Shown here: positions 24 to 25,884 of the stretch, piece after piece | Position numbering within the stretch: the first letter of the stretch is position 1 | Layout: each line of letters starts with the position of its first letter | UHGV virus genome: UHGV-0272533 | Direction: 5' to 3' (one strand) | Origin: a virus | DNA: 26,055 nucleotides | Position numbers and translations under genes: made by a program | Notes under the pieces: generated by a model | What the model was told of the DNA's origin: nothing | The model's input: only the letters and a program-made list of their open reading frames with translations | Database searches by the model: none

Positions 24-629
24 ATGATGAATAAAGCTGTATTAAATAGTGAACTCATTGCCATAAAAGCGGGAGACATTATCATTTATAATTATGATGG
101 CGAAACGCGGGAATATATTTCTACATCAACTGAATATCTCGCTGTCGGCGTCGGTATCCCGGCATGTTCCTGTCTGGATGCACCAGGTACACATAAAGCT
201 GGTTATGCAATCTGTCGCTCTGTAGATTTAAATTCATGGGAATATGTGCCAGACCATCGCGGTGAAGTTGTCTATAGTACCGAAACGGGAGATACCAAAG
301 AAATCACAGTTCCGGGTGATTACCCTGAAAATACAACCACTATCGCCCCATTAACGCCATACGATAAATGGGATGGTGAGAAATGGGTGACGGATACCGA
401 GGCACAGCATAGCGCCGCACTAGACGCGGCAGAAGCACAGCGCCAGTCACTGATTAATGCAGCAATGGCTTCCATTAGTCTGATTCAGCTGAAATTACAG
501 GCCGGACGGAAGTTGACGCAGGCAGAAACAACCCGACTTAACGCCGTGCTGGATTACATTGACGCGGTGACGGCAACAGATACCAGCACCGCGCCGGATG
601 TCATCTGGCCTGAACTGCCGGAGGCGTAG
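24..629 (+). CDS. Tail fibre assembly protein (Tfa-like), convergent with the minus-strand tfa
   Basis: 201 aa; ATG at 24 preceded by GAGGG. C-terminus (LNAVLDYIDAVTATDTSTAPDVIWPELP) is the typical Tfa C-terminal motif and is shared with the ORF at 601..1044. 3' ends of the two genes overlap at 601..629. Confidence 0.7.
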   Translation: MMNKAVLNSELIAIKAGDIIIYNYDGETREYISTSTEYLAVGVGIPACSCLDAPGTHKAGYAICRSVDLNSWEYVPDHRGEVVYSTETGDTKEITVPGDYPENTTTIAPLTPYDKWDGEKWVTDTEAQHSAALDAAEAQRQSLINAAMASISLIQLKLQAGRKLTQAETTRLNAVLDYIDAVTATDTSTAPDVIWPELPEA

Positions 630-1044
630 TCCATTCAATATCTGGCGCACTGGAAGTATCGACCATTTCCAGTGCGTCCAGATAATCCAGCCACAAATTA
701 TATTGCACCAGTTCCTCACCTTTCAGACGACCAATTGATGCTTTACCTGGCCATTGTTTACTGTTGATGTATTCGTTGGCCTGATTAATCAATTGCTGCT
801 TTTTAGTTTCGGCTGATGCAATTTGTTCTTCACGTGTTGGTGGAGGAATATCTGCCCATGCAGGCAGTCCATCCTCTCCGACACATCTGTATTTTCCTTC
901 TGGTGGTGTATCATAGAAATATTCCCTGAAAATTACTTCGTCTATATCAACACCTTTTTCTTCAGGCCACTCACCTTTTTCAACATAAAGAGACTGAAGT
1001 TCATAAGGATATGCTAGGTTGTTTACGTACAGATATTTCATCAT
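601..1044 (-). CDS. tfa: Tail fibre assembly protein (Tfa)
   Basis: 147 aa; start ATG overlaps the stop of the upstream tail fibre gene (TAATG at 1042..1046). C-terminal LWLDYLDALEMVDTSSAPDIEWTTPP motif is typical of lambda-type Tfa chaperones. Confidence 0.75.
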   Translation of the reverse strand: MMKYLYVNNLAYPYELQSLYVEKGEWPEEKGVDIDEVIFREYFYDTPPEGKYRCVGEDGLPAWADIPPPTREEQIASAETKKQQLINQANEYINSKQWPGKASIGRLKGEELVQYNLWLDYLDALEMVDTSSAPDIEWTTPPAVQAR

Positions 1045-1853
1045 TACCAGCCCTTAGCGAAAAACGCACCACCTTCAAGACCATAATTGCAGTGAGCTAT
1101 GAAGCCGGTAGTGCTCCAGTTGGTCGCCCCCCACATATTCCCGCCCCCGAAACCACCATCGAACACAATTACAATGCCCGGTGTATGTGTAAATGGAATC
1201 GGGAATGAAACATTGGCGGATACAGGCCCGAGTTCACCAGGAAAACTAATTCGTCCCCACTGTTCAATTGAACCATCTGGCATTTTTCGCCAGCCTGAAC
1301 CTGATGCATATGATGACATATCAGGTATCTGATTTTCCCCAGTTCCCACATTCCGTTTTGCCGCTTCTCCCAAACCAAGGTTTGTGCGAGCGTCTGCGGC
1401 ATTCGTTGCGCCGGTTCCGCCGTCTGCGACAGTAACCGCACCGTTGCTCCCTTTCTGTGCCAGTTTACCGATGCCAGGGATGGTTACGGTGGTCCCGTTG
1501 ATGGTAACGGTGATGGTCTGGTTTGCTGAGGTAGTGGCGAACGTCTCCCACGCGCCAATGTTCTCGTCATACTCTTTGATGAGCTGCGACATTGCCTGGG
1601 CCAGTCCGTCCACGGAGATAATGTCTGACACCAGAATGGCGTATTTCTGGCCGCTCAGCGCCGGGGAAGCGGCAGGCGTAACCGTCATTGACGTGGCGCT
1701 GTTCACGGATGAAATCTGGAACAGTTGCACCGGGTTAGACATCACGATAATTGTCTGGCCAGCGCGAACCTGGCTGGCCGGTGCCGTCCAGTTTGTACCC
1801 GTCCCGGTGGCGGTATTTCCATTAATGGCGATGGTGCCGGTGTTATAAAGCAT
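1044..1853 (-). CDS. Putative tail fibre protein (short, Gly/Thr/Asn-rich)
   Basis: ORF track begins at an alternative TTG at 1868. I prefer ATG at 1851..1853 ([12 protein letters not shown]...) with GGAG 5 nt upstream. Gly/Thr/Ser/Asn-rich composition and position directly upstream of, and coupled to, tfa. Confidence 0.55.
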
Positions 1854-1869
1854 ATTTTCTCCAGGCAAT

Positions 1870-2262: not shown

Positions 2263-2933
2263 TCATAGGCCGCTGTATTTATGGCGGTTAATGAAATGCC
2301 AGTATTCGTTCCCCCTACAGGTGAACCTGTCCCAGTGGAGGTCCCCCCTGCGTTTATCCTCGTATTGGCCCCGTCAAACCTGCATGAAGAATAAGCATTT
2401 ATCGTGTAGATAGTCGGAGGCTGGGTTGAATTATTCACAATGATGGTCTGACCCAACTGAGCAGGTGCAACGGCCCATGACCCGCTCAGCGTCTGGTCAA
2501 TATTTATCCCGCCGTTTGCACCAGGCGTGCCAACCGTCTGCAGGTCTGATAGCACACGGGACTCATTAGTTAACACAAGCTTTCCGCTCGCATCCCATAT
2601 TGCCAAACCCCATTTCGGTAATATCTGCGGGAATATGGCAAAAACGTACGCCGTTAAAGTGAAACTTTGGTTGTAGGGATTAACACCAACAACATACACA
2701 TTACCGCCGTTCCTGTAAGACATAACCGGAGTGGGCTGTGCTGTATTGGTGGTTTTGATAAAAACCATCACTGGGTAATCAGCGTTTAAAGCGATATTTT
2801 GAGCAACCTGCTGAGAACTGCCATTCGCGGATGAATTGAAGGTATACTTCCCGTAAAGACAGAAAGGCGTTGATTGTGGCGTTACAAAGGGATTCCCGTT
2901 ATCCATTAATATCATCGCGCCAAATTCGGCCAT
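2259..2933 (-). CDS. Hypothetical phage protein downstream of J (paralogous to the 2933..3235 product)
   Basis: 224 aa; ATG at 2933 overlaps the upstream stop (TAATG); GGAG 8 nt upstream. Contains AIWDASGKL, similar to IQTWDASGNP in the neighbouring ORF. Function unknown. Confidence 0.5.
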   Translation of the reverse strand: MAEFGAMILMDNGNPFVTPQSTPFCLYGKYTFNSSANGSSQQVAQNIALNADYPVMVFIKTTNTAQPTPVMSYRNGGNVYVVGVNPYNQSFTLTAYVFAIFPQILPKWGLAIWDASGKLVLTNESRVLSDLQTVGTPGANGGINIDQTLSGSWAVAPAQLGQTIIVNNSTQPPTIYTINAYSSCRFDGANTRINAGGTSTGTGSPVGGTNTGISLTAINTAAYD

Positions 2934-3235
2934 TATGCTTTCTCCATGAAAACGACCACCTCACATTTAGAGGCCGGGTAATTACCCAGGCCCACAGAAG
3001 AGGCTGCGGTTACGGTTATTGTGTTCCCTGACGCGACAATGCTCCTCCCTACGCTGTTACCTCCTTCATCAAGTGAGAGCGCAAAACCGACCTTCATTCC
3101 TGAGGGTACAGTGAAAGACCAGCTGCCGGAGTTTTGTCCGGCGGCAAGTTGTATACGTCCAACAACGGAAACGGGCTTGATTCCGTAGTTGTTGGGGTTT
3201 CCCGAAGCATCCCAGGTCTGTATTCCATAAGCCAT
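2933..3235 (-). CDS. Hypothetical phage protein downstream of J
   Basis: 100 aa; start ATG 2 nt after the J stop (TGATATG). Shares the WDASG motif with the next ORF. Function unknown. Confidence 0.5.
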   Translation of the reverse strand: MAYGIQTWDASGNPNNYGIKPVSVVGRIQLAAGQNSGSWSFTVPSGMKVGFALSLDEGGNSVGRSIVASGNTITVTAASSVGLGNYPASKCEVVVFMEKA

Positions 3236-3236
3236 A

Positions 3237-6200
3237 TCAGAACACCCCCGTTAATCGGCCAACCTGCACTCTCAGAACGTTGTTGCCATCCTTGACGCTG
3301 ATTGTCTGGTTGGTCTGCTTCATGGCTCCCTCCCCAGCTGTCGAACCGTAGTTCTCAAACGTCCCGGACTTATCCAGTTTCCAGCCAACAGAGCCGGCAA
3401 CATAATTGTTCGACTGGATGTAATTGCCAATTTTTGCATTGCTTATGGTCCCGTCGCCAATGACTGTATCCCTGATAATGGCCTGGCCATTCTGGATAAC
3501 GAACGGCAGTGTTACAGTCCCGCCGACCATAGTAGTCACGGCGAAACGGTCTGCCAGGAAGATTACCTGTGACTGCATGCCGGAGGGTGTATTTTGAACC
3601 CCAATACCCATCCCGGCAGCGTAATACTGCCCGTTACTGGACACCCCCACCTTGATGTTATACATCGCGCTGAGGTTACCGTTTACATCTGCTATAGCCT
3701 GTGCGTTGACGTTTATCGCTGCACTGTTTTCGCCTGATTTAACAGTCAGAGTGTTGATTTTTGTTGCCGAAGCCTGGGTGAAATCAGCAAGAGTTTCTGT
3801 CAGGTCCGTTGAGTTAGAGATATTGCCACCAGCTTCTGCATCCAGTGTGACCAGCGCGCGTGCGACCGCCTGGCTGGTATCGGCAATCGTAGTATCCACT
3901 CTGTCTATACTGGCACTGTTCCCGGCGTTTGTTGCTGTCTGGGAACGACGACTGACAACCTGCGCCAGCCCATTCTGGATTATCGCAATTGCCGAATTCT
4001 TCACGCCTCCTGTCATACCGTCCATTGAAACGGAAATCTCATCGATTTTTACCGCCGCCTGCGCCAGCCCGTCAGCGTTTTCCTGTATATCTTTCGCCTG
4101 CTGCTCCAGCTCGTCGGCATGGTTTTTGATTTCGTCAGCCATGCCAGCAATTTTTTCATTGCTGTCCACTGCGCTCTCAATCAGATCTTTAAACGTAGCG
4201 GAGTCTTTGATCTCCTCCAGGATCACATCGGTGATATCGGAAACATCGATGCTGGCCTGACCTCGCACCCAGTCGGTATACCCGGACTCGTTTCCCGTTC
4301 TGTCGACCAGTTGCGCGCGATACCAGAAAATCTGCCCTGCCTTAAGACCCATCTGCTGATATTTGCGCTGCGGATAAGGCACATCGGCCAGCAGCATTGC
4401 ATCATCTTCGCTACCGGTCAGGCTGTACTGAATTTCCGTCTTCAGCGTGTCTTCGGTATTCGCCGGGAATCCCCAGTTCAGCTCGATACCGAATACCACG
4501 TTTTCAGAAGCGATGAAGCCAACCGGCTTCGGTGGGTTTCCCACTTTACCCGTCAACGTTTTCTCTTCTGAATAGCCCCACCCAGATGAAATTTCGGCGG
4601 CATTGATGGCACGCACGCGAACCAGGTAGCGTCCTGCATAAATCCCCGGAACATCGAATGACGTGGTGGAGCTGCGCGGCACATTCACCCAGTTCCCGTC
4701 ATTGCGACGCCACTGTGCCTCATACGCGATAGCATTTTTCGCCTGGTCCCAGCTGACGCGCATGGTCTCAACGCTGATATTCTGCTGAACGACAGAAAAC
4801 GAACTGATCGCGATATTAGCTGGCGGGGACTGATTACCGGGCGGAATTACACTTATTGGCCGCTGGTCGACGATGGCGCCGGTATCGATACGGGCATACT
4901 TATCCGGATCGTGAAAAGCACCAGTAATAGAAAACGTGCCGTCGTTATTATCAGAGACGCTGATAACACGATATTGCTGTGCATAAAGCTCGTCGGATTC
5001 GACAATCCATACCGATTCGACTGCCGGTGTTTCGCTGTATGCCGTGGTCACGGTGACAGCCCGGCCGTTTACGCTCTGAATCGTCCTGCTCTGCGATGCG
5101 CCAGACGGCAGGTTAACCATAAGACGGCTTCCGGCAACGGCAGCGGAATCACGATCAAGCGTGATAACGCGACCATTAACCGCGCTGATACGCCCTCCCA
5201 TCACCTTTCCGGATAACAGCTCATCGGCAACCGCGATAATATAACCAGGCTGTGGAATGTTGCCGTCCAGACCAACATCAAACGATACGATGCGATCCTT
5301 GTTATTGGTCTGAATCCCCCAGCGCCCCTTACGGTTTGCCTCAGACTGCCGGGTACAGCCAATGGCTGTCATCTCGAGCTGGTTTGTGCCAAAGCGAGCG
5401 ACGAGCTCCTGTTCAAAAACCGGCTCCATCGCATCTGCGTAGGCATTACCCGGATCTGACCAGGAAACCAGCGCGGTGGTATAGCGGTTTTTAGTGGTGC
5501 TGCCAGAATAGGTAAAGCGGCCGTCAACCACGTTAGCGCGGGTGTAGCTGTAATCAACATCGCGGGGCATATCTGCCAGTGCAACGATTTGATTGCCGCC
5601 CCAGTACGTCATGCCACGGAATATCGCCGCAAAATCACGTAACACGGTATAGGCGTCATTCCTCTCCTGCACGTACACGTTACAGGTATAGCGAGGCTCG
5701 GTGCCGCTACCGCCTTTACCATCAGGAACCAGCTGATCGCAATATTGTGCGACCTGGTAAAGCGTCCATTTATCAATATTTGCCGCCGTCAGGCGGTCGC
5801 CAAGTCCAAAACGGTCGCTCACCACCAGATCGTAAAAAATCCACGCCGGATTGTCCGTCCATGCCCACTTAAACGCCCCCGTCCAGGTACCGCTATAGGT
5901 CCGGGTTTCCGGATCGTAAGTATCCGGCACGCGGATAACGCGCCCGCGCGGTTCACAGGAAATTTGCGGGATGGAGCCGTTAAACTGGCTTGAATCGAAT
6001 TCAATGTACAGCAGCGCGGTGTTTGGATAGCGCAGTTTGGCATCGATTACCTCCGTGTAGCTCTGCAGCGTCATCGTGTCGCCAATTTTCGCACTGTTCG
6101 CATCTGCGGTGAGCTTACGAAGACGTACCGTCCAGGTGCTTCCCGCCTGCGGTAAGTCGATACGGTGGCTGCGTTCGTAGCCTGACGTGGTTTTCCCGGT

Positions 6201-19516: not shown

Positions 19517-21438
19517 TATTCATCTCCAGATAATGCCCGCGCGTAATCCGCCAGGGTCTTGTTATTGTTACGGCTGCCTTCTTCCTCCAGCAGGCTGGCC
19601 AGAAGTGAATCAAGATTTAGCTGCCAGCGGGATATGCTTATACGCAGCGCCGCCAGTGCATAAACAAAGCAATCGAGCGCCTCATTTCGTCGTTTTTTGC
19701 TGTCCCAGACGATCTTTTTCTTTCCGTCTACCCATTTTTCCACCTGCTCTTCAGCTGTTAGTTGTTGGGCCTCTGTTAGATCGTAGATTTCTGGGTTATT
19801 CGGGAAATGAACCGCTCCCGCCAGCGGCTCGTCTCTTTGCGCCACCAGCGTGAAACGGTTATAAATCTGCTCTTTTGCGGTGTCTGTTCCTACCTCTGTG
19901 AGGTAAACACCATTCTTGTTACGCTTGCGTGGCATGTTCGCCACTGGCTTTCCATAAACCGACGCCCCCTTTATAGGGATCACACGAAACAGACCGTGTT
20001 TTTTTGAGCGGTTGTAGACGATGGTGGGATCAATGCCGCCAATATCCCAGCAAGTGCGGGATATAACCATTTCGAGACCGTTCTGGCGCTTATACGTCCT
20101 GTTGATCGCTTCATCAACTCGAGCGAGAGTCGACTCATCATCATGACGACCCATAATGATAATTTTGTCGATAAGCCAGCTTTCCTCTCCCGGCCCCCAT
20201 CCCCAAACACGCATTTCGTAACGGTCAAGCTGGGAGTCAATACCCGCTGTCAGATATGCCACTCGCTCCGGCACAGACGCTTCAAAGTGCTCTTTTCGTT
20301 CCGCTAAAACTTCAGCATCGGGTCGTTCACCTATTTTCGGTTCCCACGTTTCGCCCAGGGTCGTGTTAACGAAAGTTTTTCGCTTACCCGTATCACCTTT
20401 TGTTTTTATCCAGTCCTTGACGATCTGCACCCAGGTTGTGAACGGGCTATATGCGGTCCAGATGTGGAATGTAACGCTGTCAGGAGGTTCAATTTCGGTA
20501 CCGGATGAAGAAAACCAGTTAAGGCCGTCTCGTGTCCAGATACCTGTTTCATCACAAATATACCTGGCCTCCAGAAATTCCAGCTCCTGTTGTTTAATCA
20601 CACAGGCATTGTGTTCACAGAGGTAGTAAACGCTGGCAGGTTCTCCCGGAGACCATTTGAAGCCAAATGGTGTCTCTTTATCACCGAATTTCAGATACTG
20701 CTCTTCCCCACAGTGTGGGCATGGAACATGGAACCGAAGAAAATGTTCAGACTCCTTAGCAGCTCTTTCTATCTGGCACGTACCTTTGACTTTCGGTGTA
20801 GATCCGCGAATGGATTTCGGCCATACAGAACCCTCAATACGCTTATCACCCAGAAAGGTGGGAGAACCTTCTTTCTCGATGTCATCATCGAAAGCGGCGA
20901 GCTCGTCGTAGCCAGCCACATCAACTGATTTTTCACGGTAGTTTTTTGCAGCCTTACCGCCCAGGCACCAGAAACCACGACCATTCGAGAAACGCTTCAT
21001 GCTCAGCGTATTGTCCCGGTGTTTTTTACCGTACCAGGGAGCAAGCGCCAGCAACGTCGGAATATCACGAATGGTCGGTTCTACATGAGACTTCATGAAG
21101 TTTTCAGCATCACCGTCGGTTGGTAACCATATTAGGGAGTTACGCTGTTTATGTTGGATGAAATATGCGTAAACGCCGAGCAACATTTTTGAGTAGCCGA
21201 CACGAGCCGATTTAACGACATTCACCTCGCGAATATAGTCATTACCCATCGCATTCATAATTGCACGCTGAAATGGCAGTGTTTCCCAGCGCCCTTCCTG
21301 GTAGGCAGACTCTTTCGGGAGATAATAATTCTCATCTGCCCATTCAACTGCTGTTTGCGGTTGCGGCCGGTACAGCGAACGTAACCCCGCCCGCGCAGAG
21401 TGCTGCAGCCCCTTAACCTGACTGTTCGATATATTCAC
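19516..21438 (-). CDS. A: Terminase large subunit A
   Basis: 640 aa (lambda gpA is 641); N-terminus MNISNSQV...[23 protein letters not shown] as in lambda; GTG start at 21438. Confidence 0.95.
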
Positions 21439-21958
21439 TCAGCAACCCCGGTATCATTTCATCCAGCGCAGCTGCCTTGTTCATGGCCTTAATGATGTCC
21501 TTCTTGAGGAAATCAATATGTCGGTTCTCCAGCTCCGGGAAGCGCCGCTGAACCGACAGAGGTATTCCATCGAGAATGCTGGCGATTTCTCCGGCTACCC
21601 GCGACAGCACGAACGTGCAGAATGCGGTCTCCACCACTTCAGCGGACTCTTTTGCATTTTTTAATTCCTGAGCGTCAGCCTGAGCTCGCGTAAGTCGGTG
21701 TCGCTCATATTCAATCGTGCCAGGTTGAAGATCGGACTCAGAAGCGATACGGAGATCTTCAACTTCCTTCCGCAACTTTTCATTTTCTATAGCTGCATCG
21801 CGCGCACTGTACCATTCGATTGCAGCAGCAGATTCAAAGAGAACCTCATTACCTTTGCCACCACCGCGGACAACCGGCATACCTTGCTCCTGCCAGTTCT
21901 GAATCGTTCGGACGCTTACCCCGAAAATTTCGGATAAGCGTTTTTTGTTAACCTCCAT
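21413..21958 (-). CDS. nu1: Terminase small subunit Nu1
   Basis: 181 aa; near-identical to lambda Nu1 (MEVNKK...IRTIQNWQEQGMPV.RGGGKGNEVL); overlaps A by 26 nt as in lambda; GGAG 7 nt upstream. Confidence 0.95.
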   Translation of the reverse strand: MEVNKKRLSEIFGVSVRTIQNWQEQGMPVVRGGGKGNEVLFESAAAIEWYSARDAAIENEKLRKEVEDLRIASESDLQPGTIEYERHRLTRAQADAQELKNAKESAEVVETAFCTFVLSRVAGEIASILDGIPLSVQRRFPELENRHIDFLKKDIIKAMNKAAALDEMIPGLLSEYIEQSG

Positions 21959-22059: not shown

Positions 22060-22190
22060 AAACAATGAGTAAACAAGAAGAAGAACGGAAATGGCATAAA
22101 CCAGAAAATTTTCATAAATAGCGAGAATCTGCGCGGACGCCGCCCCGTGGTAGGCCACCCCGCCGGGAGGACCCATCAGAATATGAGATG
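22060..22190 (-). other. cos: cos region: cosN cohesive-end site (about 22133..22144) with flanking cosB/cosQ-like sequence
   Basis: Minus strand reads ACGGGGCGGCGTCCGCGCAGATTCTCGCTATTTATGAAAATTTTCTGG, versus recalled lambda ACGGGGCGGCGACCTCGCGGGTTTTCGCTATTTATGAAAATTTTCCGG. Lies immediately upstream of Nu1. Confidence 0.6.
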
Positions 22191-22271
22191 AATATCCGAG
22201 GCTTATAAACACCCTCGAAGAGTTATTGTCAGCTGGATCTACAAAAGAGAATAAAGGTAAGTACTAGCTAT

Positions 22272-22294
22272 AAAAAAACCCCGCAAGAGCGAGG
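22272..22294 (-). terminator. Rho-independent terminator ending the kinase-phosphatase operon
   Basis: Minus strand: CCUCGC-UCUU-GCGGGG stem-loop followed by U7, 18 nt after the phosphatase stop. Nearly identical to the terminator at 1870..1892. Confidence 0.55.
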
Positions 22295-22311
22295 TTTTAG
22301 CACTTATGGGG

Positions 22312-23049
22312 TTAACTAACTTTGAATTGAGCAGCTATCAATGAATAATCATCGGTGGGTGTTTTCTTTAAAATACGTTTATACAAACTTGCAGTGAAGC
22401 TACTAACATTACCAAGCGTATTCAAAGAAAAACGAGGTCGATGCTCCCAGAAATGATGTGCACCATCAGACATAATGAAAAGTGTAAGCACTCCGTTATC
22501 GTCTACTATATCAGCCAGTGGCAAAACTACATGCTGATACCGTATCGTCAAACTGCGAGTTAACGCCGCAGTAAGAGTATTCTTTCCTGGCAATTGCTCA
22601 AGCTCTTTTTTAGTATAAAGGCCGTCGTCCAAAAGTTCTTGATGCTGAGTATGGTCCTTTGTGACAAGATTAAGTTTGCCGCCCTTCTTAATGTAAACTC
22701 TGGTATCGCCAACATGAATCACATTCAATTCTTTAGCTGTTAAGAAACAATAAGAAAGAGTTGTTGCCGCTTTAAAATATTCATTATTTAAATTAGACAA
22801 TGCAATAATGTTATTTTGTATTAGCTCCAATGTGAGCTGTGGGTTTAACAATTTTTCTTTATTGAGTTCAGCAAGTTGACTAGTTGCTATATTCGCAGCA
22901 TCTTTGGCTCCAGGATAAGAACCAACGCCATCCGCAACAGCAAAAACAAATGCCCCATCCACTTGCCGAGGTAGCAATATCGCATCTTGATTGTCATGCT
23001 CTACATTTTTTGAGCATGAGAATGCTGCGCAACTCAACAAATTAATCAT
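22312..23049 (-). CDS. PP2C-family (PPM) Ser/Thr protein phosphatase
   Basis: 245 aa; acidic metal-ligand motifs in PP2C order: ED (17-18), AVADGVGS (DG 40-41), GDTR (114-117), SDG (194-196), TDD (232-234). Start ATG overlaps the kinase stop (ATGA). AT-rich codon usage. Confidence 0.7.
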   Translation of the reverse strand: MINLLSCAAFSCSKNVEHDNQDAILLPRQVDGAFVFAVADGVGSYPGAKDAANIATSQLAELNKEKLLNPQLTLELIQNNIIALSNLNNEYFKAATTLSYCFLTAKELNVIHVGDTRVYIKKGGKLNLVTKDHTQHQELLDDGLYTKKELEQLPGKNTLTAALTRSLTIRYQHVVLPLADIVDDNGVLTLFIMSDGAHHFWEHRPRFSLNTLGNVSSFTASLYKRILKKTPTDDYSLIAAQFKVS

Positions 23050-23825
23050 TGCATTGTCCTCGCTATAACACTGTCTAAATCACTGAGCATCTGAGTGACT
23101 GAATCGAATCTAGCATTTGGGACATATGCTGTAGATCTATCCACAATTGCCCCAATCCCGGGAGCATCTTTTAGGTTTAATTCATTTATAATTACACCCA
23201 AAGCATAAATATCTGATTTTTCGGTATATGTCCCACGCTGTGCTTCTGGTGACATGTATTCAGGTGTGCCTATGCCAATTGAACGATCCTGCAAAATATT
23301 TGAAAGAAATGCTGATTGAGCTTCAGAGTTAATTGTCTTAACAAGCCCAAAATCTGAGATTTTATAGCAACCATCAGGGTACATGAGAATATTTTCCGGT
23401 TTCAAATCTCGATGCAAGTAACCATTCCTATGTATGTATTCAACTCCCTTTAGGACCATCCTGAGCATTTCAAGCTTATCGCGTTCAGTCAACACACCTT
23501 CGTTCATCTGTTTACGGAGGTCACATTCAGCTAGTTCCATAACAAACCATGGGTTATCGATGCTAAGATGATGTATGCATACAGGTACAACATTGTCATG
23601 CGTACACTCAGCTTGATACCTGACTTCACGTTCAAATCTTCGCTTCCAATCGTCCAAAGAAAAGAGGTGGTTGATAAGCTTGGGATTCACAGAAAGGACC
23701 TTCCTTGCGTAGAAGCCGCTGAAATGGCCTAACGTATTATAGACTTCAACCTTTTCAACCCGTCCAAAGGTTCCTTGACCCAATTCATCAATCGGTTTGA
23801 TTAAATAATTCCCTCTAGGATCCAT
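23046..23825 (-). CDS. Hanks-type (eukaryotic-like) Ser/Thr protein kinase, minimal catalytic domain
   Basis: 259 aa; Gly-rich loop GQGTFG (16-21), AxK Lys42, catalytic loop HRDLKPEN (138-145), DFG (158-160), activation segment GTPEYMSPE (186-194), DIYALG (205-210). AT-rich relative to flanking genes. Confidence 0.8.
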   Translation of the reverse strand: MDPRGNYLIKPIDELGQGTFGRVEKVEVYNTLGHFSGFYARKVLSVNPKLINHLFSLDDWKRRFEREVRYQAECTHDNVVPVCIHHLSIDNPWFVMELAECDLRKQMNEGVLTERDKLEMLRMVLKGVEYIHRNGYLHRDLKPENILMYPDGCYKISDFGLVKTINSEAQSAFLSNILQDRSIGIGTPEYMSPEAQRGTYTEKSDIYALGVIINELNLKDAPGIGAIVDRSTAYVPNARFDSVTQMLSDLDSVIARTMQ

Positions 23826-23862
23826 AGCTCGCTCTCATCACTGATGTATAGAGCGAATTTAC

Positions 23863-23890
23863 ACCCTAGCAACGAAACTTTCCATGTCAA
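23863..23890 (-). promoter_or_regulatory. Candidate sigma70 promoter for the kinase-phosphatase operon
   Basis: Minus strand: TTGACA (23885..23890), 16-nt spacer, TAGGGT (23863..23868). Downstream, a 7-bp inverted repeat (23829..23835 and 23850..23856) could sequester the ribosome-binding region 3 nt before the kinase ATG. Confidence 0.3.
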
Positions 23891-23936
23891 TGAGATAAAT
23901 CTGTCTATGCAAGAGAATCACTAATGCTGAACATTT

Positions 23937-24428
23937 TTAATCTCTTAAAGAGTTGTAGATACGCTCACATATCATTCCTGCGCGGTAGCTGTCATCAGAT
24001 CGCCCAGCATAGTATCTAGCTTCTTCTGCAATGCTTCCGAGCATGTCGGCGAGCATTGCGGAGTTAGCGCTGGTTGTTTTGCTTCCGACGGCAGCGGCAA
24101 GACCTGCGGTGTGCTTTGCGGCGTCCAGGCGGGTGGCAAGTTTTGTTGCTTCGGTGCGCAGCTGGCTAACAGTGGCAGACAGGCCAGCAGCATTCGCAGC
24201 CGCTTTTGCAGCCTGTTCTTGTGCATTTTTAACAGCCTCATCGCGAGCGATTACTCGCCCTTGTTCAATCATACGAGCTGCGGTCTGTGCATTCGCTTCC
24301 TGTGAAGATTCCGCGCTATCCCGGTCAGCCCACTTTATTTTCCAGCTGCGGTTCGTCCACTCACTGCCAGCGAGAAACGAACCTACCAACGCAACAATCA
24401 CAATGATGCAGATGCCACCCGGCTTCAC
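23937..24428 (-). CDS. Rz: Rz-like inner-membrane spanin (i-spanin)
   Basis: Start placed at GTG 24426..24428 overlapping the endolysin stop (GTGA), with GGGGGA upstream. The ORF is open back to 24521, so the start is uncertain. N-terminal TM segment ([16 protein letters not shown]), then Ala/Gln-rich coiled-coil region. Confidence 0.55.
23972..24241 (-). CDS. Rz1: Rz1-like outer-membrane lipoprotein spanin embedded in Rz in another frame
   Basis: Embedded ORF; lipoprotein signal with lipobox LASC (...[15 protein letters not shown]), followed by a Pro-rich mature region. True start may be the Met at 24224..24226. Confidence 0.55.
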
Positions 24429-24973
24429 TGGTCTATCCCCCAGCACGTCAGTGCGCTTTCCTGGTCCCGCCGTTCTACCTGCCCATAACATCCATCCTTC
24501 TGGCCCTTGGTCAGGCGGCAATCGCGGCCACCGTCTTTAATCCACCAGCGGATAGCTTCACAGGCTCCTTTCGTATCGCCAGCATTAATTCGCTTATAGA
24601 ACGTAGACGGGAAACATTTTCCGGGGCCGATGTTATATGGGCAGAAAGAAGCGATACCCGCTTTCTGTGGTTCGGTCAGTGGTACTTTGATATTTCGGTC
24701 AACCCACGCCAGCGCCTTGTCGCGTTCAATGGCGTTTACCTGGGCGCATTTCTCAGCTGACAGCTTCATGCCCTGTACTACTGGCTTGCCATCAACCATT
24801 GTTGCACCACGGCAAATGGTCCAGAGTCCGCCGCCGTCGCGATATGCTGTCAAGCTGTTACCCTCTTTCTCATCCAGAAACTGATCGAGAATCACGGGTG
24901 CGGAAGCCCCGGCAAGAATCAAACCAACGACCGCTGCGCTCAATTTATTCTTCAGCTTTAGAGACATAGCCAT
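24425..24973 (-). CDS. R: SAR endolysin (T4-lysozyme-family muramidase with N-terminal signal-anchor-release domain)
   Basis: 182 aa; N-terminal Gly/Ala-rich weakly hydrophobic segment ([19 protein letters not shown]); E...D...T catalytic spacing in [25 protein letters not shown]; overlaps the holin 3' end. Confidence 0.8.
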
Positions 24974-25223
24974 TGCGCCGATCCTCCCGTTCTTTCCAGC
25001 GGAAATACCAGTTCACTGCACAGGTGATTACCGTGCATGCGATACCGACAATAATTGCCCAGTCGCTCAGGCTTAACCCTGCAATTCTGTCGGCCAACAT
25101 CCAGGACACCTCTTTTGCTGTTTTAGCTGTTTCGGCATATGCCTTCGCTGATACACCGCAGCCGGTCAGCGTGGTTCCTGTTCCATATGAAAGTCTGCTG
25201 TAAATGGTGCTCATTCTGGTCAT
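24945..25223 (-). CDS. S: Putative holin
   Basis: 92 aa; ATG at 25223 with strong SD GGAGGTG; two hydrophobic segments and a charged C-terminus (KEREDRRNG); first gene of the lysis cassette. Confidence 0.6.
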   Translation of the reverse strand: MTRMSTIYSRLSYGTGTTLTGCGVSAKAYAETAKTAKEVSWMLADRIAGLSLSDWAIIVGIACTVITCAVNWYFRWKEREDRRNGYVSKAEE

Positions 25224-25467: not shown

Positions 25468-25884
25468 ATGACCATGGATGTAGGATTACTTATCGCGTCC
25501 CTTAAAAACGGGATCGGCGCGCTTTCTGCTGTGCAAAGTAACGAGGTCCTGCGCGAGCGCATCGCTTTCATTGGAGAGCAGATCGACGTACTTCAAAAAG
25601 CCCATGCTGCCACCATAGCAGAACTTGCCGAGGCGAAAGCCAAGAACGTAGAACTTGAGAAGGAAATAGCGGCTTATCGGGCAAAGGATGAGTTTGTCGA
25701 GCACATGGGTGCGGCCTTTAGAAAAAATCCCGCGGGTGGGTATATCAGCGCGGTTTATTGCCCCAACTGTCTTAAACAGGTCGGTAGCGGGTTCGATGAC
25801 TTTCCTTACCATTGCGGCTCCTGCGGCTGGACTTCAAGATTTGAAGGAAGGGAGATTGATAGCGTAATGAAAACCCTCCCTTAA
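25468..25884 (+). CDS. Hypothetical coiled-coil / zinc-ribbon protein, antisense to late transcription
   Basis: 138 aa; N-terminal heptad-like region, C-terminal CPNC...CGSC four-Cys motif. Start may be the second ATG at 25474 (AGGGA 7 nt upstream). Followed by a hairpin at 25891..25910. Confidence 0.45.
   Translation: MTMDVGLLIASLKNGIGALSAVQSNEVLRERIAFIGEQIDVLQKAHAATIAELAEAKAKNVELEKEIAAYRAKDEFVEHMGAAFRKNPAGGYISAVYCPNCLKQVGSGFDDFPYHCGSCGWTSRFEGREIDSVMKTLP

Follow-up and report, generated by a model that had tools for sequence, protein, structure and literature searches.

What does a protein kinase gene coupled to a protein phosphatase gene do in the late region of a temperate phage? The question is raised by the UHGV virus genome UHGV-0272533, a stretch of 26,055 nucleotides (nt) that was analysed over its whole length (hereafter the window). 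The window represents, on its minus strand, the late region of a lambdoid prophage, with genes and sites in the order holin, lysozyme, Rz-like spanin, kinase, PP2C, cos, Nu1, large terminase, head and tail genes, J and tail-fibre genes. The carrier is a dormant virus of an E. coli-type genome, and the kinase/PP2C cassette within it is imported. The answer that we favour, giving it slightly less than an even chance, is that the two enzymes form a toxin/antidote switch, expressed in the lysogen, by which superinfection is aborted or excluded once the kinase slips from the control of the phosphatase. The cassette comprises the following parts.

22149..23954, no strand: exchangeable cargo unit, 1806 bp, 39.9% guanine plus cytosine (GC) (blastn against the sister prophage L002, GC statistics)
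23825..23046, minus strand: stand-alone Hanks-type Ser/Thr protein kinase, 259 amino acids (aa; 780 bp), proposed toxin (Pfam, alignment, AlphaFold2, Foldseek)
23049..22312, minus strand: PP2C/PPM-family Ser/Thr phosphatase, 245 aa (738 bp), proposed antidote (Pfam, alignment, AlphaFold2, Foldseek)
23049..23046, minus strand: ATGA overlap of 4 nt between the PP2C start codon and the kinase stop codon (sequence)

The product of the upstream gene was recognised by the Pfam model Pkinase (PF00069; E=1.9e-36, 126 bits against a cut-off of 31.7), and Pfam gave kinase-family models only. The hallmarks of a Hanks-type enzyme were all present, namely the glycine-rich loop (G16xG18xFG21xV), the beta3 Lys (K42), the alphaC Glu (E67), the HRDxKxxN loop (H138-R-D140-L-K-P-E-N145, a catalytic loop of the Ser/Thr type), DFG (D158-F-G160), the P+1/APE-like region (G186-T187...E194), the alphaF Asp (D205) and the subdomain XI Arg (R239). 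When the query was aligned with 47 homologues, these elements were invariant or nearly so, and Lys42, Asp140 and Asp158, which an earlier note made from the DNA sequence had named as catalytic residues, were correct and invariant across the 48 sequences. The AlphaFold2 model (predicted local distance difference test score, pLDDT, 88; predicted template-modelling score, pTM, 0.86) consisted of one kinase domain spanning residues 1 to 259, with the activation loop (165-184) as its sole disordered part. A Foldseek comparison with PDB structures placed FGFR2, PknB and Stk1 on top, with a probability of 1.00 and template-modelling (TM) scores of 0.67-0.78.

The downstream product was assigned to PP2C_2 (PF13672) with E=1.8e-14 and 54 bits against a cut-off of 24. 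Its metal-site motifs (D22, D40-G-V-G43, G114-D115, D132-H133, S194-D195-G196 and D233-D234) were invariant or nearly so in an alignment with 45 homologues. The model was predicted with a pLDDT of 92 and a pTM of 0.89, and its best Foldseek match was PstP (1txo, TM 0.80), followed by Stp1, tPphA and PppA; both the Asp metal motifs and the beta-sandwich fold that define a PPM phosphatase of Pfam PF13672/PF00481 were thus found in this 245-aa protein. The homologues in the two alignments had mean identities of 43-58% (46-48 sequences). Because the catalytic residues are conserved across these 46-48 homologues and the predicted folds are confident, both enzymes look active. Neither a non-kinase fold nor missing catalytic residues were seen in the profile search, the alignment or the AlphaFold2 and Foldseek results, and both enzyme identities proposed in the earlier note were borne out. 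Separately, the phosphatase aligned only with positions 273-519 of the 565-position PHROG 5650 profile; the N-terminal half of this profile, some 270 extra positions, was not matched by the kinase.

The 4-nt ATGA overlap, from which translational coupling had been proposed from the start, was found as described and couples the translation of the two genes. The conservation of this arrangement was followed in two sets of 80 loci each: a kinase-anchored set from IMG/VR, in which 38 kinase clusters (90% identity) are represented, and a PP2C-anchored set. The PP2C gene lay immediately downstream of the kinase gene in all 79 evaluable IMG/VR loci, the 80th ending with its contig, and the 4-nt overlap recurred in 67 of these 79 viral loci. 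The kinase-then-PP2C synteny was strict over about 150 loci and held without exception at the genome loci inspected, which came from Cronobacter, Enterobacter, Photorhabdus, Aeromonas and Vibrio. Isolated phages with the pair are Cronobacter phiES15 (gp21/gp22, already annotated as 'putative protein kinase' and 'putative serine/threonine phosphatase') and Escherichia phage Flotzy. To judge from gene order, the partnership of the kinase with its PP2C is obligate.

At the protein level, kinases of about 250-265 aa were found across Enterobacterales, Vibrio, Aeromonas and Pasteurellaceae, and PP2Cs of about 245 aa in those same groups plus Acinetobacter and Pseudomonas. Among 1.84 billion representatives, the PP2C clade accounted for approximately 20 clusters (50% identity) at E<=1e-30, beyond which only generic PP2Cs followed. 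At the protein level the family is broad but well delimited, and the pair is a mobile module conserved among the temperate phages that infect Gammaproteobacteria.

Damaged copies of the module were sought in the kinase-anchored and PP2C-anchored sets. Eight independent events were found that inactivated the kinase: two nonsense mutations, two frameshifts, three deletions (605-740 bp) and one insertion of an IS3-family insertion sequence (IS).

L042 (same contig as L149): W93* nonsense mutation; the 99%-identical L136 is intact
L092: nonsense mutation at kinase codon 3
L087: frameshift near kinase residue 218
L100: frameshift near kinase residue 44
L151/L152: 684-bp kinase deletion (reference L157)
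L155: 605-bp kinase deletion (reference L157)
L162: 740-bp kinase deletion (reference L161)
L102 (E. coli ABW_S38, NZ_CP067265.1), 2668-4413: ISSen4 (IS3-family) insertion leaving 191 aa of the kinase; intact in 027_SK3 (L001)

The PP2C open reading frame (ORF) was intact in 8/8 of these cases. No knock-out of the PP2C by a nonsense mutation, frameshift, IS or deletion beside an intact kinase was present in the loci surveyed, and PP2C truncations were seen only at contig ends. Under a model in which hits fall in proportion to gene length, the probability that all eight would strike the kinase is (780/1518)^8=0.005, and Fisher's test on 6/80 versus 0/79 gave p=0.028, although the loci are partly related and some of the disruptions could be sequencing errors. 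The asymmetry fits a toxic kinase restrained by its phosphatase, because in a toxin/antidote pair the toxin can go, whereas the antidote cannot go first.

ABW_S38 and 027_SK3 are near-identical wastewater isolates, and the PP2C is intact in both. One further lineage (L171 from IMG/VR and L178 from Yersinia enterocolitica, where the module adjoins smpB) was altered in both genes, with the PP2C ORF remaining continuous; at 3568-6101, its kinase consists of three overlapping fragments and its PP2C is a 366-aa protein in which residues ~32-150 are duplicated. Either the tandem rearrangement is real, or an artefact of assembly has recurred here.

The toxin/antidote logic and the decay asymmetry apply equally to a pure addiction module that penalises loss of the prophage or DNA segment and has no anti-phage role, and the mobility and low GC content of the cassette suit such a module as well. 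Post-segregational killing, however, needs an unstable antidote, and there is no sign that the stability of the PP2C is below that of the kinase. Prophages, once integrated, are moreover not readily lost, and defence against phage has been demonstrated for related kinase systems; we regard addiction as quite improbable. The retention of the PP2C, even where the kinase was deleted, would also be expected if the phosphatase served to erase the phosphorylation laid down by kinase-based immunity of the host (of the Stk2, PD-T4-6 or KKP type) and the kinase were an accessory. In KKP, a kinase-kinase-phosphatase system of prophages, phosphatase activity does decide the outcome of kinase immunity (PMC11341870). 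Such an anti-defence role is nevertheless very improbable, as it leaves unexplained why an active, conserved kinase is coupled upstream at nearly all loci, and host kinase defence systems are not known as common in these hosts.

In the toxin/antidote switch that we favour, the cassette would be a 'moron', a mobile accessory gene set carried by temperate phages, and its two enzymes would make up a phosphorylation switch. The bare kinase would be the harmful part; auto-activated on its activation loop, it would phosphorylate host proteins, and possibly those of the incoming phage, and arrest growth. The coupled PP2C, made together with the kinase, would keep both the kinase and its substrates dephosphorylated and so act as an enzymatic (type VII-like) antidote. 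In a lysogen, a drop of phosphatase relative to kinase activity would free the kinase, and by analogy with KKP the trigger could be a protein of the superinfecting phage that inhibits the phosphatase. The freed kinase would then abort or exclude the infection, protecting the host population of the prophage. Strict synteny, asymmetric decay and the KKP precedent give this switch indirect support. Also in its favour are the intact active sites of both enzymes, the recent transfer of the cassette, its residence in accessory and exclusion slots and the further precedents of 933W Stk, Stk2 and PD-T4-6. Its generalisation, which we put forward only tentatively, would be a minimal phosphorylation-based immunity in which a bare kinase and a PP2C form a plug-in cassette, triggered by phages that perturb the phosphatase, in temperate phages of Enterobacterales, Vibrio, Aeromonas and Pasteurellaceae that carry it in slots behind Q, Rz and cI/N.

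The limits of the cassette were given by its relatives. Overall, the window shares 99.4% identity with a prophage in E. coli NZ_LT883142 (L002), which has four unrelated hypothetical genes in place of the cassette, and the ECONIH4 prophage has yet another gene set in this slot. In blastn, the flanks of L002 were 99.9% identical to the window up to 22148 and 95.7% identical from 23955. As identity between sister prophages stops at 22148 and resumes at 23955, the exchangeable unit was set at 22149..23954. Its GC content (39.9% versus 53.0% over the rest of the window) was the lowest of all 1806-bp segments (mean 52.4%, standard deviation 3.9), and the GC content at third codon positions was 0.31-0.37 in the cassette genes versus 0.49-0.56 in the adjoining genes. 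The AT-richness that the earlier note had judged by eye was therefore confirmed by calculation, as was the intrinsic terminator it had described, which is located here.

22297..22272, minus strand: intrinsic-terminator-like hairpin, 9-bp stem, UCUU loop, then U7 (folding)

The hairpin, AAACCUCGC-UCUU-GCGGGGUUU followed by U7, lies 15 nt 3' of the PP2C stop codon and has a folding energy of -20.9 kcal/mol (z=-3.8), which was equalled by 0/200 shuffled sequences. It was not listed by a simple consensus promoter/terminator scan. Rfam gave nothing above threshold in the cassette region, and all of its sub-threshold matches fell on this hairpin. Of the features expected of a moron in the Hendrix/Juhala sense, the cassette has a discrete insertion between conserved phage genes, absence from sister phages, atypical GC content and its own terminator.

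At the DNA level, the cassette was found in only 2/5426 complete E. coli genomes, both from Basel wastewater. In these strains it also occupies the slot between Rz and cos, but the prophage is a different one, with a DUF1441/GpA terminase and a ClpP-capsid fusion. Window positions 22138-24137 are ~100% identical to this prophage, against 81-91% identity for the lysis genes next to them and no relationship on the terminase side. The ~100% identity of this 2-kb block between otherwise different prophages points to its having been transferred very recently. Neither flanking repeats, direct or inverted, nor IS ends were found around the cassette, which appears to move by recombination in the flanking phage sequence (the Rz 3' end and cos). 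The genes and sites that bound this slot are the following.

25223..24945, minus strand: holin (context)
24973..24425, minus strand: lysozyme (context)
24521..23937, minus strand: Rz-like i-spanin (DUF2514, Pfam 2.8e-46), bounds the slot upstream (context)
24241..23972, minus strand: lipoprotein ORF with an LLASC lipobox, in another frame inside the DUF2514 gene (sequence)
22145..22134, minus strand: cosN cohesive end GGGCGGCGTCCG, downstream boundary of the slot (phi80/N15 alignment); context, not part of the module
21958..21413, minus strand: Nu1-type small terminase (context)

The embedded LLASC-lipobox ORF is an Rz1-type o-spanin, as expected of an embedded two-component spanin. The cosN was placed by aligning base 1 of the phi80 and N15 records, with their annotated 12-nt 5' extension, to position 22145 of the window. 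The breakpoints of two relatives meet in cosN (22134-22148): the relatives that share the terminase and head side end at 22148, and the Basel prophage, which shares the cassette and the lysis side, begins matching at 22138, within the cosN region. It looks like cos was the mosaic joint that placed this right arm on a different left arm, and the route looks like cohesive-end joining or recombination in the conserved 11 bp.

The kinase/PP2C pair thus lies between the Rz-like spanin gene and cosN, and the comparison with the bor slot made in the earlier note is apt, since bor of 933W fills the equivalent interval between Rz and the terminase. This is one of three slots in which the module recurs. 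At least 13/80 loci have it between Rz and the small terminase, as here, and at least 29/80 in the stx slot, flanked by the antiterminator Q and the holin. The third slot is the immunity region: in one locus (L063) the pair lies directly downstream of a cI-like repressor gene and co-oriented with it, CI/HTH-type (helix-turn-helix) repressor domains occur in 3-4 distinct upstream genes, and further sites are beside SieB (L055) and downstream of an N-peptide protein. Lambda rexAB sit in the cI-operon position, where the stk gene of 933W is found as well. Sites outside such prophages are an Aeromonas chromosomal islet with a DUF4760 gene and a position beside a Vibrio filamentous prophage.

In this islet, which in Aeromonas veronii (L012-L014, 6001-8237) lies between housekeeping genes and outside prophages, a third co-oriented gene (DUF4760, with predicted membrane character) follows 7 nt after the pair; the arrangement may be a three-gene variant of the module. 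A Cronobacter prophage (L004, 934-2840) has an RVT_1 reverse transcriptase and SLATT_5 pair on the opposite strand, an architecture that resembles retron or Abi-type defence gene pairs, and two others (L010, L011) carry HicAB between Q and a methylase. On account of these RVT_1/SLATT_5 and HicAB genes, the prophages that carry the module seem to accumulate defence-type cargo. Neither third genes beside the pair at other loci nor the alternative cargo of the sister prophages gave PADLOC defence matches, and the Pfam matches of these two groups were only weak (Phage_Tail_Tip, DUF4760, terminase fusions).

The position of some relatives directly behind a cI-like repressor gene is also what would be seen if the module served regulation or lysogenic-conversion signalling, tuning the phosphorylation of a host regulator (e.g. 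a nucleoid protein) for prophage induction or host physiology, with killing as a secondary effect. KKP has such a second function, exerted through MvaU (PMC11341870). Reversible chemistry and 1:1 translational coupling would suit a set-point device, and the occurrence of the module outside double-stranded DNA prophages, in the Aeromonas islet and beside the Vibrio filamentous prophage, points the same way. However, no candidate substrate or regulator was linked to the module, its spread over unrelated phage backbones and host genera argues against a specific host regulator, and repeated loss of the kinase only is more typical of a costly toxin. A mainly regulatory role is for these reasons considered unlikely.

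Several observations weigh against the toxin/antidote switch as a defence expressed in lysogens. Besides the relatedness of the loci and the possible sequencing errors mentioned above, the uneven decay tells of nothing more than a kinase that is costlier, or easier to do without, than its phosphatase, and not of a mechanism. The kinase is without a sensor domain, which leaves the trigger unexplained. Its PADLOC matches (mad6, 6.5e-44; PD-T4-6, 3.4e-35; Stk2, 5.6e-26) are to the generic catalytic core, with E-values near that of Pfam Pkinase; the PD-T4-6 match (PDLC04042) covers profile positions 35-214 of 292 with query residues 44-225, has no curated cut-off and is no better than generic Pkinase, and the PD-T4-6/mad6 models are 292-659 positions long. 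The PP2C matched a candidate model only (3e-6). No known defence match was found in PADLOC for the replacement cargo of the sister prophages L002 and L003, which includes proteins with a weak Phage_Tail_Tip-like segment (L002 3126-3854, L003 26789-27253), so that the gene neighbourhood of this slot lends the switch no support. In the literature, a full-text collection of limited scope yielded no experiments on this kinase/PP2C module family.

The same side of the balance holds the question of expression. In two of the three slots the module is co-oriented with the late operon, and it may therefore be expressed mainly in lytic growth. An own -35/-10 promoter had been claimed for it, and the region concerned contains the following signals.

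23954..23826, minus strand: upstream intergenic region travelling with the cassette, candidate promoters inside (read from the sequence)
23890..23885 and 23868..23863, minus strand: candidate promoter TTGACA-N16-TAGGGT (by eye; TTGACA perfect)
23884..23879 and 23861..23856, minus strand: candidate promoter TGGAAA-N17-TAAATT (by eye; overlaps the first candidate)
23836..23832, minus strand: Shine-Dalgarno-like GAGAG (read from the sequence)

In the consensus scan, no qualifying sigma-70 promoter was found on the minus strand, and less weight was accordingly given to the claimed promoter. In 7 divergent loci a TAnnnT element recurs ~30-45 nt upstream of the start codon, which is no more than suggestive. 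Of the features of a moron, its own promoter is represented only by weak or overlapping candidates and the recurrent TAnnnT, none of which passes the scan.

Co-orientation within a late transcription unit at most loci (Q-holin or Rz-terminase), together with a promoter not convincingly found in the scan, would agree with a role in the lytic cycle, in which the pair would be expressed late and dependent on Q, the kinase would reprogram or shut off the host and the phosphatase would limit or time its activity. T7 gp0.7 is known to reprogram or shut off host functions in this way. Against this, late expression alongside the lysis genes would be a poor time for a host take-over, the strong terminator and foreign GC content are those of morons expressed in lysogens, the module also occurs in cI/N immunity slots and in non-prophage islets, and sister phages manage without it. 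A lytic function is thus distinctly unlikely.

Two other parts of the window were noted. A 138-aa ORF (25468-25884, plus strand) lies in the Q-to-holin interval on the strand opposite to the late genes, with a coiled-coil-like N-terminal half and CxxC...CxxC zinc-ribbon motifs; it had no match in Pfam or PADLOC, its region is 98% conserved in the ECONIH4 prophage, and it is a further unexplained accessory gene. At the window edge, two Caudo_TAP tail-fibre assembly genes (24-629, plus strand, and 601-1044, minus strand) face each other, adjoined by a gene for a tail-fibre C-terminal part (1868..1044). This end of the window may be an invertible or alternative host-range segment, and no invertase for it was found inside the window.

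A prophage kinase with a PP2C has been known as a toxin-antitoxin and defence system since the description of KKP in 2024 (PMC11341870), and the module is not a new category but a smaller, two-gene version of a known kind, with the minimal architecture of one bare kinase and one PP2C. Its value to the specialist lies in this architecture, in its use of three classic lambdoid accessory slots, in the tractability of E. coli and in the natural 8:0 asymmetry of decay. The module measures 1.8 kb, is easily cloned and is native to E. coli phages, and both natural kinase-null alleles and cassette-free sister prophages exist, so that the toxin/antidote and defence hypotheses are directly testable in the model host. 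ABW_S38 versus 027_SK3 offers a ready-made natural kinase-null control. Should the defence hypotheses fail, the module would still be a widespread phage-borne Ser/Thr signalling pair.

To our knowledge, only a handful of systems use kinases in phage defence (Stk2, 933W Stk, PD-T4-6 and KKP), and the role of a partner phosphatase has been worked out only in KKP. The view of the earlier note that the pair cannot be assigned to a named system was upheld, with only generic kinase-domain matches in PADLOC and no NCBIfam model reached at its cut-off by the proteins of the pair. Similarity to the NCBIfam models for BREX PglW, lanthionine-synthetase kinases, Bud32, UbiB and TerY-P was far below cut-off, and these candidates were rejected.

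The kinase Stk of the Shiga-toxin phage 933W excludes HK97. Like the module kinase it is encoded by a lambdoid prophage, both kinases belong to PHROG 2361 (3e-142 and 6e-75), and some relatives of the module hold the cI-operon position as well. However, Stk (348 aa) carries a C-terminal extension, reads HFD where the module kinase has HRD, is without a phosphatase neighbour and lies in the cI operon; it is 25% identical to the module kinase over 229 aa (E=9e-13) and is missing from the tblastn matches at 1e-8. Membership of the Stk family was rejected on this identity and on the position of the present module between Rz and cos and not in the immunity operon.

PD-T4-6 is reportedly a single-gene Ser/Thr kinase defence from the E. 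coli pangenome. It has no phosphatase, whereas the module kinase has an obligate partner; the main text of Vassallo et al. 2022 gives no detail on it past 'eukaryotic-like Ser/Thr kinase'. Mad6 is, unlike the two-gene module, part of a multi-gene methylation-associated system (MADS), and the kinase scored 74 bits with the NCBIfam MAD6 model against a cut-off of 460. Stk2 of Staphylococcus epidermidis, the abortive-infection kinase of Depardieu et al. 2016, is a Hanks-type enzyme; phage infection reportedly activates it, and the cell is then killed or arrested. It is host-encoded, Gram-positive, 500 positions long with extra domains and without a dedicated phosphatase partner, in contrast to the phage-borne pair.

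The best structural and sequence matches to both module proteins were to the housekeeping pairs PknB-PstP, Stk1-Stp1 and PpkA-PppA, in which the PP2C dephosphorylates the activation loop of the kinase and its substrates. This logic, with the phosphatase resetting activation loop and substrates, was adopted as the biochemical model for the module. The housekeeping kinases are chromosomal core genes with transmembrane segments and PASTA, FHA or other sensors, whereas the module kinase is bare and mobile, and the NCBIfam scores for the models of these pairs were 119 against a cut-off of 450 and 86 against 230. The TerY-P triad (the vWA protein TerY, a PP2C and a Ser/Thr kinase) is mobile and was reportedly described as a defence system by Gao et al. 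2020, and it resembles the module as a mobile operon in which a PP2C is paired with a Hanks-type kinase. It was rejected, since there is no TerY/vWA gene in the 1.8-kb unit or its flanks and no TerY-P among the PADLOC PP2C matches shown. Lambdoid morons such as bor of lambda and 933W share with the cassette the slot between Rz and the terminase or cos, the foreign GC content, the terminator at the end and the patchy distribution among sister phages; bor is one lipoprotein gene on the opposite strand, whereas the module encodes two enzymes and is co-oriented with the late operon.

Among characterised systems, the nearest to the module is KKP (PfpC-PfkB-PfkA; Guo et al., Nat Commun 2024, PMC11341870), a kinase-kinase-phosphatase module of Pf6, P2, P4 and Mu-like prophages in which a PF13672 PP2C precedes two kinases and which acts as a toxin-antitoxin and defence system. 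Its kinases are toxic jointly, neither being so alone, and the toxicity is neutralised by the catalytic activity of the phosphatase (PMC11341870). KKP protects against T4 and T-odd phages, its phosphatase is bound and inhibited by T4 Gp59, and it also controls Pf prophage induction through phosphorylation of MvaU (PMC11341870). [quoted passage not shown]

The module is like KKP in its location in prophages and mobile elements, in combining a PF13672 PP2C with a PF00069 kinase in one operon, in its Gram-negative hosts and in the toxin-antitoxin and abortive-infection logic proposed for it. It differs in having one bare 259-aa kinase without FHA or CSD, the order kinase then PP2C, the 4-nt overlap, the lambdoid slots and genes of only 780 and 738 bp. 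A 366-aa Yersinia protein (P0132) that might have linked the two was rejected, being a rearranged copy of the module family with a fragmented kinase and a duplicated PP2C. The two systems are set apart by architecture, their sequences having been compared through common Pfam domains only. If the pair does form such a minimal immunity, the FHA and CSD domains and the second kinase of KKP would be dispensable for kinase-based abortive infection, and the essential parts of KKP would become apparent from the module. Defence annotation would also gain a family of two genes, at present mislabelled by defence finders as generic PD-T4-6/mad6 or missed entirely, and the Q-holin, Rz-cos and cI-N slots of lambdoid phages would exchange a common immunity cargo. 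The module may work like KKP but is not a KKP, because it departs from each of the architectural features by which KKP is defined.

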